Made by a program: the position numbers and the translations under genes. This document shows positions 35,176-60,860 of a stretch of 64,000 nt of DNA, piece by piece (position 1 is the first letter of the stretch; every line of letters starts with the position of its first letter). Under the pieces are notes generated by a model, which had not been told where the DNA came from, did not search any database, and worked only from the letters and a program-made list of their open reading frames with translations. This DNA is from an uncultured Gemmatimonadales bacterium. Lineage in GTDB: Bacteria; Gemmatimonadota; Gemmatimonadetes; Gemmatimonadales; GWC2-71-9. The stretch covers positions 33,382 to 97,381 of the forward strand of contig CAMYLY010000013.1 in assembly GCA_947259405.1 (NCBI GenBank). Direction: 5' to 3'.

Positions 35176-35242
35176 ATCGGGACGGCGGGATCCTGCGTGG
35201 TGCGACCGCGAGCCGGCGCAGCGTGTTTCCCCCCCTTCATCC
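35176..35242 (+). repeat. short copy of the intergenic repeat family
   Basis: ATCGGGACGGCGGGATCCTGCGTGGTGCGACCGCGAGCCGGCGCAG... It shares GGTGCGACCGCGAGC with the 44553 copy and ends in a C-rich tail. Confidence 0.65.
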
Positions 35243-35339
35243 AGATTCAACCGGGGTGGCGGACAAGGGCCCTCTCAGCAAGCGGGCGATCTCCCGCCGC
35301 GGCGATGCAGAACGCGCGCACGGCCGGCCAAAGTCATTA

Positions 35340-35480
35340 TGCCATCGCGCGGTGTATCAGCCGATCCTGGACTTGAGCACGGAACGCACCGTTGGACCCC
35401 GAGACGCAGATGGGAACGCTTCGACGTCTCCGCGAGGCCGGCATGGGCATCGTGATCGATCTCGAAGCCGCTCGACATCG
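35340..35480 (+). pseudogene. decayed EAL-domain (c-di-GMP phosphodiesterase) fragments in two frames
   Basis: One frame gives HRAVYQPILDLSTERTVG (EAL-domain N-terminal signature YQPIxDLxTGxxVG). A second frame ~20 codons later gives TLRRLREAGMGIVIDL (L..LR..G..IAIDDFG-like). The frameshift and the too-short spacing imply a relic. Confidence 0.4.
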
Positions 35481-60590: not shown

Positions 60591-60679
60591 GCGGCGCTCC
60601 GCACCCTCCGTTAAACAGGCGCGTGCGCAGATCCATGAGTTCCGAGGCGAGCACAGTTGGCACCCAAGCACGAAAAACG

Positions 60680-60860
60680 AACGGCCGTTCAACGAACGGC
60701 CGCCTCGTCACTCTAAGTGATGTTGTGACTTACTTGAGTCGGGACGGCGGGATTTGACGCGGTGCGACCCTGAGGCGGCGTAGCCGCCGACGGGGAGAGA
60801 GCGGATCAAGCATCTGCGCCAGCAGATGCGCCGATCAACCCGCGACCCCCTGAACCCCAT
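60680..60860 (+). repeat. long copy of the intergenic repeat family
   Basis: Hairpin CGGCCGTTcaacgAACGGCCG, then CTCTAAGTGATGTTGTGAC..GTCGGGACGGCGGGATTTGACGCGGTGCGAC, internal hairpins GGCGGCgtaGCCGCC and GCATCTGCgccaGCAGATGC, and 3' module CAACCCGCGACCCCCTGAACCCCAT. Confidence 0.88.

Follow-up and report, generated by a model that had tools for sequence, protein, structure and literature searches.

Tyrosine integrases of tRNA-targeting elements duplicate an identity block that reaches from the anticodon loop to the 3' end of the tRNA gene, and the T-loop and the anticodon loop are the two classical crossover positions of these integrases. An integron array is headed by IntI, attI and Pc, and its attC sites contain the core sites R''/L''-L'/R' (RYYYAAC...GTTRRRY). 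REP/BIME are short palindromes that occur in hundreds of copies and in alternating orientations, together with a RAYT transposase. According to passages of PMC9897764 (Reiter 1989, Williams 2002), displaced 3' fragments of tRNA genes, which form attR-type direct repeats, end tRNA-integrated islands and prophages, also in tandem accretion; Islander (PMC4383910) is a source for tRNA 3' fragments at the ends of integrated genomic islands. The tRNA-seeded tycheposon islands of Prochlorococcus grow by successive integrations that push older elements inward, hold scattered partial tRNAs and degraded integrases, and carry cargo for defence and adaptation to nutrient limitation (bioRxiv 10.1101/2020.12.28.424599). 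T-loop-specific integration is described for mycobacteriophage Ms6, in tRNA-Ala (PMC1762012).

The repeat analyzed here lies in a 64,000-nt stretch of Gemmatimonadales DNA (the whole stretch that was analyzed, referred to as the window). It resembles the fragments at tRNA-integrated islands in its tRNA identity from the anticodon loop or T-loop to the 3' end, in its direct orientation downstream of an intact gene (here in 9 related loci), in the variable cargo between tRNA and fragment (here in the relatives L092/L150, L156 and L095), and in the tyrosine integrase beside the site in intact elements. It differs from them in that a conserved structured module, usually of 74-78 nt, interrupts the T-loop, the blocks are very short and mostly without integrase, and up to eight fragments lie within 50 kb in a window that holds neither tRNA nor integrase. 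As in tycheposons, partial tRNAs would mark serial integrations, but the phylum is another one and the half-tRNAs bear an insert in the T-loop. Like the Ms6 site, the junction GATTTGA|CGCG falls within the T-loop, at a base that other element ends join as well; unlike in Ms6, the T-loop here holds the module of usually 74-78 nt and the rest of the half-tRNA rather than a whole element. The locus thus appears to be of a known kind, an accretion array at a tRNA-gene att site, that is unusual in its T-loop module, in its short integrase-less blocks, and in a window free of tRNA and integrase.

Copies of the repeat in the window

Matches to the core GTCGGGACGGCGGGATTTGACGCGG with at most 2 mismatches occur on the + strand at 35985, 47732, 51620 and 60738, and none was found in 100 shuffles. 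When up to 6 mismatches were tolerated, + strand copies at 12271, 35176, 42596 and 44590 were added. The sole minus-strand core match, at 26848, is intragenic and was rejected as a chance match, being at a mismatch level at which shuffles also score (approximately 0.25 matches). A repeat finder recovered the family independently (D1, D2, D4, D5, D7, and D8). All eight copies recognized in a preliminary description of this DNA belong to the family, and the uniform polarity reported there holds: all 8 copies have the core on the + strand, and 7/7 adjacent pairs of the window have the same sense. All copies are intergenic, and 7 of them fall inside 26 kb. A relic that had been proposed at 40335-40400 had no similarity to the repeat on comparison, and we do not retain it.

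In what follows, A is the core, B the 3' module, and a composite consists of A, an insert and B; all copies are annotated on the minus strand, the sense of the tRNA sequence that they contain. The best-preserved composite (60738..60860) consists of an exact A (60738-60761), an a-type insert of 80 nt (60758-60837), and an exact B (60835-60860) that terminates inside the anticodon loop. Beside it lies an intrinsic terminator (60680..60704, minus strand) with an 11-bp stem and the tail CGTTTTTCGT; it is the first listed of the terminator-like sites between 42 and 61.5 kb, has the longest stem, and is the clearest minus-strand match there. A second complete composite (51590..51710) has an exact A (51620-51643), a b-type insert, and a B variant (51683-51710) in which the T-stem side is rewritten into a hairpin arm that pairs with A over 12 bp. 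Next to this B lies an arm-like extension (51711..51800, minus strand) whose pattern is similar to that of the conserved B-side arms in other genomes; the similarity is weak and the two may be homologous. In the third complete composite (35985..36105), A (35985-36008) is followed by a b-type insert of 78 nt (36005-36082) and by a B with 5 mismatches (36080-36105) that stops 3 nt short of the katG stop (36109).

The other copies are less complete. The copy at 47674..47830 (D1, D7), which separates the divergent IorA and PIG-L genes, has a leader hairpin (47674-47697), a spacer, A with 2 mismatches (47732-47755), and a b-type insert, and lacks B. At 44553..44700 (D2, D4, D5), 1 base past the stop codon of the serine hydrolase gene, a tandem partial copy has two A cores (44557-44576 and 44590-44613), followed by an a/b-like insert and no B. 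Between the cyclase and serine-hydrolase genes, a decayed copy (42560..42720, D8) retains the leader, A with 6 mismatches (42596-42619), and a fragment of a b-like insert (42639-42665). Another decayed copy (35128..35262, D2) has a terminator-like hairpin (35128-35168) and an A core whose T-loop is mutated (35176-35199), followed by the beginning of an a-type insert and by a degenerate B; its hairpin was read from the sequence, and its fold is not above shuffles. The most distant copy (12232..12378), which adjoins the stop codon of the minus-strand gene 12382-13776, is diverged, with a spacer/leader, a core with 6 mismatches (12271-12294), CGCG and insert, and what we read as a faint B remnant at approximately 12352-12378. 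Its leader (...ctatcttg...ccgctag|TCGG) is similar to the leaders of 42560 and of the loci L003 and L018. Half of the window copies are truncated or decayed, and preservation drops from 60738 leftward to 42596, the copy at 35985 being an exception.

Parts of the architecture first proposed for the element require revision. The leader is indeed common to the copies at 47674 and 60680 (88 nt, 78% identical, D7), but it is not part of the fold of the element; it is the minus-strand terminator. The 3' module, which most copies had been thought to carry, is exact in just one of them (60835-60860); it is degraded at 36080, rewritten at 51683-51710, and absent from the copies at 42596, 44553, and 47732. 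The proposal that the whole element forms one long hairpin applies to the complete copies, in which the split T-stem closes the insert and the whole unit can therefore fold as a long hairpin. DNA folding of these copies beat shuffles (z -2.4 for 60738, -3.8 for 51620, and -2.6 for 35985), whereas the remaining four copies tested folded no better than shuffles. Folded as RNA, the three complete copies gave z values of -1.35, -2.5, and -3.3 against shuffles, which is weak for one of them.

The tRNA-Pro(GGG) half and its T-loop insert

The family had been taken for one undescribed repeat with conserved ends of its own. These ends are in fact two parts of the 3' half of tRNA-Pro(GGG), on the opposite strand. 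Read on the minus strand, the core is TCAAATCCCGCCGTCCCGA, which comprises the T-loop, the 3' strand of the T-stem, the 3' acceptor strand, and the discriminator (19/19 identical), and the 3' module, ATGGGGTTCAGGGGGTCGCGGGTT, spans the segment from the anticodon loop through the 5' strand of the T-stem (24/24 identical), the references in both cases being the tRNA-Pro(GGG) of L005, L013, and L056. The stretch identical to the tRNA has one limit in the anticodon loop (...AACCCCAT|) and the other at the 3' end of the tRNA. The window, GTDB loci, and viral contigs have the B boundary ...AACCCCAT| in common; A-only copies break off at GATTTGA|, and in composites the insert parts A and B exactly within the T-loop. 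The alignment of ARAGORN-called tRNAs with the minus-strand window copies settles the tRNA origin: on sequence grounds, each copy is a displaced 3' half of a tRNA-Pro(GGG) gene, extending on the minus strand from the anticodon loop to the 3' end. The leader hairpin sits where the terminator of a tRNA gene would be, and the A side of each copy, in other genomes too, bears a terminator-type hairpin whose stem sequence varies by copy while its structure is kept.

The unit itself is not a tRNA, because the 5' acceptor strand and the anticodon-stem strands are missing. ARAGORN called no tRNA or tmRNA within the window. Rfam had no match in the window at gathering thresholds and none for 60650-60900 at E values up to 10, and among composites from eight loci its sole match was the real tRNA in L092. 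A reading of the core as a retroelement-style primer-binding site was dropped, as TGG seldom precedes it.

The exact 19-mer from the core was found at 45 loci of species-representative genomes, with 1 to 3 loci per genome; approximately 40 of these loci have a composite, and nearly all are labelled Gemmatimonadota. Overall, the composite is present at about 160 loci in Gemmatimonadota genomes and soil metagenomes, and the best named relatives of the window's own proteins are in Gemmatimonadales. Typical composites were also observed in L015, L021, L025, and L041, on contigs labelled Acidobacteriaceae, Alphaproteobacteria, and Bryobacteraceae; L025 and L040, the latter from a Gemmatimonadales MAG, are identical in the sequence around the copy, and these labels may be binning errors. 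In L030 (chromosome OZ252244.1), positions 2040-2120 hold a near-full-length tRNA-Pro-like sequence with a diverged 5' half, not called by ARAGORN; an a-type module comes next, then a second A core and a frameshifted integrase gene.

We classified approximately 217 core matches into 121 composites, 76 A-only copies, 11 uninterrupted half-tRNAs, and 9 intact tRNA genes. The insert begins with CGCG in 171 cases and ends with TCA in 106 of the 121 composites, and its length has a sharp mode at 74-78 nt. This is about the size of a tRNA. Four insert types (a to d) are recognizable, of which the window holds a and b, and an unpaired AGCGGA motif is common to the types. Many of the insert hairpin loops, as read on the + strand, are GNA triloops closed by C:G (GCGAAGC, GCGCAGC, GCGTAGC). 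The possibility that the inserts are an independent dispersed repeat was rejected, since blastn places modules a to d inside composites and found none of them elsewhere save for one 19-nt match in L022. In the commonest type, three hairpins are kept by compensatory substitutions, with 97.5% of positions paired and seven pairs changed on both sides; none of 500 shuffles reached 97.5%, and slid controls gave 28% to 38%. The earlier statement that the variable centre keeps its hairpin potential is therefore borne out. The alignment of 72 mixed composites was too heterogeneous for a consensus fold. Among 16 inserts folded, both strands were equally stable and G-U pairs favoured neither strand; because both strands fold equally well, RNA and DNA structure are indistinguishable here. 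The inserts of L002 and L006 do not differ over 74 nt (100% identity), and near-identical inserts were seen in separate MAGs.

A second insertion point was found in the anticodon loop, between CCCTGA and ACCCCAT (L006, L022, L041, and L045), and in L012, L013, and L034 other sequences join A at the same T-loop base (GATTTGA|attcaacggccc). Because of these anticodon-loop insertions and T-loop joins, both classical crossover positions are breakpoints in this family. The split T-stem and TTGA/TCAA are the only inverted elements in the unit, and no duplication is evident at its ends; the TGA...TCA at the insert ends could be an imperfect 3-bp duplication. We take the hairpin module, which lies precisely at the second of the classical crossover positions, to be part of a propagated att-site unit, perhaps as a proximal arm or as a miniature site-specific insertion. 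A half-tRNA interrupted in its T-loop cannot rebuild a working tRNA; therefore, the crossover would have lain 3' of the insert, or the insert would have entered after displacement.

Arrays, integrases and gene blocks

Co-orientation is general in the family. Adjacent copies have the same sense in 13/13 pairs of GTDB loci and in 37 pairs, against 2 opposite ones, of 120 metagenome loci, that is, in 50 pairs against 2 overall and in 57 against 2 when the window is counted. The opposite-facing neighbours are confined to L114 (1639- and 2564+) and L074 (3587- and 6084+), and may be inversions between copies. Arrays of three or four composites were observed in L159/L171 (the same locus in two samples), L094, L117, and L142; 2.5 kb separate the copies in L159/L171, where the two intervening blocks are unrelated to each other.

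In nine related loci, the arrays are anchored at a real tRNA. tRNA-Pro(GGG) was called in 9 loci (L005, L013, L027, L092, L093, L095, L143, L150, and L156), with ARAGORN placing it beside a copy in three species-representative loci, and in 9/9 loci with a call the copies are downstream of this tRNA and share its sense. L092/L150, L095, and L156 have a common flank upstream of the tRNA (85% to 93% identity), then 0.8 to 3.1 kb adjoining the tRNA that differ, and then the composite in common again. The variable stretch encodes an HNH nuclease, a DpnII-type restriction enzyme, a trypsin-like peptidase, and T5orf172. These sequence comparisons show arrays downstream of a real tRNA and, at an orthologous site, variable cargo. 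The unit, including its B-side arm, is shared among genomes, and the A-side flank is mostly unique. Approximately 25 nt past B (for example, in L038, L015, L009, and L026), a small palindrome and a T-run read as a + strand terminator, and beyond them are 3 to 6 copies of a short lineage-specific motif (atgtcgga, actcacagc, tgccgtact, or aacggcaac). These motifs resemble arm-type binding sites or iterons.

Integrases accompany the half-tRNA in viral contigs and in some relatives. Uninterrupted half-tRNAs with the same anticodon-loop boundary occur in the IMG/VR contigs L057, L058, L061, L063, and L064, and one 82-kb provirus holds both the full tRNA and the half (L056, L057). A Phage_integrase ORF lies beside the site in L062 (E 3.5e-11) and in L058 (E 3e-4, under the Pfam cut-off), where the gene is intact. 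C-terminal fragments of an L062-like integrase are present in L030, L084, L112, and L118 (E 9e-5 to 5e-35); they read toward the A end and end 52 to 135 nt from it. L120 and L184 have weaker matches to an integrase relic in the same arrangement (E about 0.4). In total, integrase relics or intact genes lie 52 to 135 nt from the A end in seven relative loci, two of them with weak matches only. The absence of a recombinase from the window, as first reported, was confirmed by Pfam and, for relics, by a purpose-built HMM: the best match of the L062-like integrase model to the window, translated in six frames, had an E value of 0.24 and was not significant. Moreover, Phage_integrase was not among the 25 most frequent families in the 147 neighbouring ORFs of the GTDB loci, the 19-mer junction had no match in IMG/VR, and the whole unit had none in annotated phages or plasmids.

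The copies separate unrelated gene blocks, as first described, and behave like markers of recombination junctions. The blocks are 0.1 to 9 kb long and hold one to five genes on both strands, among them katG and genes for a thiamine-binding protein, a CAAX protease, a dienelactone hydrolase, a cyclase, a serine hydrolase, an IorAB pair, PIG-L, an FNR-type reductase, an SBF/ACR3-type carrier, and cgs. A C-terminal fragment of an AcrB-type pump gene (61000..61272, + strand; profile positions 935-1020 of 1021, E 7.7e-29), corresponding to roughly the last 90 codons, is cut off on its side toward the boundary at 60860, and the block at 48-52 kb has a low GC content. We regard the truncated acrB and the low-GC block as signs of rearrangement in the window. 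In relatives (73% to 83% protein identity), the orthologous cgs and serine hydrolase genes are in unrelated, non-collinear contexts. No repeat copies were found flanking either orthologue in relatives, cgs having been checked in three of them; the sole repeat piece near these orthologues is a solitary B fragment in L046, approximately 2 kb from the hydrolase gene.

Other repeats were observed in the window. A perfect 33-nt direct repeat (22050-22082 and 24780-24812, D15) flanks the second IorA/IorB pair (22141-24776), and its right copy holds the stop and last codons of a minus-strand xylose-isomerase-like gene (24788-25789). Because the 33-nt repeat contains that 3' end, the 2.7-kb IorA/IorB pair looks inserted, with duplication of the end of the xylose-isomerase-like gene. 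An 88-nt direct repeat (29660-29747 and 32069-32156, 83% identical and 2.4 kb apart, D6) encloses a low-GC stretch (0.57-0.60 at 30-34 kb) with ADP-ribosylglycohydrolase and UPF0014 genes. The window has three IorA/IorB pairs, of which two paralogues (21500-21710 and 47117-47327, D3/D9) have 72% to 85% DNA identity over about 200 nt, and in L013 an IorAB pair lies just upstream of the real tRNA-Pro.

Probable serial integration at tRNA-Pro(GGG) and its alternatives

We consider it probable that the repeats are junction scars left by successive insertions of foreign blocks at a tRNA-Pro(GGG) gene. An incoming element would recombine with the tRNA gene and supply a new 3' half with its terminator, and the old 3' half would be displaced downstream; repeated rounds would produce the order tRNA, block, half-tRNA, block, half-tRNA, all in one orientation and with unrelated cargo between them. 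The window would be such an array, over at least 35-61 kb and perhaps from 12 kb, from which the integrases have been lost. The anchoring tRNA, if still linked, would be expected past 64000 on the minus strand. The gradient of preservation from 60738 leftward fits a tRNA to the right, and the copy at 35985 breaks this gradient. For the window itself, we infer that recombination built the array and that the insert serves as part of an att site. Several observations speak against serial integration. Conservation of the insert and the junctions between genomes exceeds what would be expected of a decaying scar; tRNA, integrase, and integrase relics are all absent from the window, and integrases are not enriched in the 147 neighbouring ORFs; the blocks are short (0.1-9 kb), and one of them is cgs, a large gene that has no adjacent copy in three relatives. 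Because of the difficulty of rebuilding the tRNA, the conservation of the unit and the lack of integrase enrichment, two other readings, a self-propagating unit and a site served in trans, are kept alive.

The first of these, which we consider unlikely, is that the unit of approximately 120 to 300 nt (arm, B, insert, and A) is a tRNA-derived non-autonomous mobile element, which a recombinase encoded elsewhere moves into intergenic sites or beside existing copies, so that the blocks are ordinary chromosome. Conservation of the whole unit across many genomes, near-identical inserts in different MAGs, and a B-side arm that travels along while the A-side flank is mostly unique would all be expected of such an element, but a position downstream of a real tRNA in 9/9 loci and content between the tRNA and the first copy that differs at the orthologous site would not. 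The lack of integrase enrichment nearby agrees with it, while the integrase relics that adjoin the A end disagree. Its insert modules are not seen outside the unit, bar the 19-nt match in L022, and cgs and hydrolase orthologues exist in relatives without adjoining copies, as this reading requires; nevertheless, the limits of the unit are the two classical integrase crossover positions in a tRNA, and neither a target-site duplication nor terminal inverted repeats are evident.

To the second reading we assign a low probability: the composite would be the working recombination site of an integrase-less cassette system, served by a recombinase encoded elsewhere. The T-arm of the half-tRNA would be held open by the module of approximately 77 nt with its covarying hairpins and unpaired AGCGGA, the tRNA-Pro(GGG) gene would be the primary site, and small gene blocks would be stacked behind it. 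Like attC sites, the composites have conserved, partly complementary ends and a variable folding centre, are uniform in polarity, and lie between unrelated genes. Unlike in integrons, IntI, attI, and Pc are absent here, and no integrase is present in the window or enriched among the 147 neighbouring ORFs. By inspection, no R''/R' core motif was seen at the unit boundaries, where the ends (TCGGGACGG... and ...AACCCCAT) are tRNA sequence. Integron cassettes are mostly single promoterless co-oriented ORFs, whereas the blocks here have one to five genes on both strands. The resemblance to attC sites and REP/BIME arrays that had been suggested is thus superseded, the ends being tRNA sequence, the blocks multi-gene and on both strands, the polarity uniform, and the 19-mer limited to 1 to 3 loci per genome.

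It is very doubtful that the copies are minus-strand genes for a structured tRNA-like small RNA, with their own terminators and with hairpins required in the RNA. A terminator does lie downstream of each unit in the tRNA sense, with stem sequences that vary among copies, and the insert hairpins keep their pairing by compensatory change (97.5%, 0/500 shuffles), but both strands fold alike and G-U pairs favour neither. Although the three complete window copies beat shuffles as RNA, one of them weakly, half of the copies in the window have decayed or lost parts, none of the window copies showed a promoter-like site, and no Rfam family matched. The unit also lacks the 5' acceptor and anticodon-stem strands, and tRNA-anchored arrays and integrase relics would be left unexplained. 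We give hardly any credence to an ordinary REP/BIME-like extragenic palindrome that terminates or stabilizes transcripts and has no link to gene mobility: the copies do lie between genes, are rich in GC, and have hairpin potential, several directly follow stop codons (katG, serine hydrolase), and terminator-like hairpins flank the unit on both sides, but the sequence is tRNA-derived, the polarity is uniform and not alternating, the exact 19-mer occurs at one to three loci per species-representative genome and not at hundreds, and the copies cluster downstream of tRNA-Pro.

To our knowledge, almost no mobile elements have been described in Gemmatimonadota. If, as serial integration at tRNA-Pro(GGG) implies, the half-tRNA repeats mark site-specific insertions, the repeat becomes a map of acquired blocks, which here include katG, an arsenite-type carrier, a cyclic glucan synthase, and pump-gene remnants. 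If the insert is not in the active site, the locus would be a clear example of island accretion and decay; if the insert is part of the active site, it would represent a new way to build a gene-capture array. Should the composite prove to be a working cassette site, Gemmatimonadota would possess a gene-capture device analogous to the integron and built from a tRNA.
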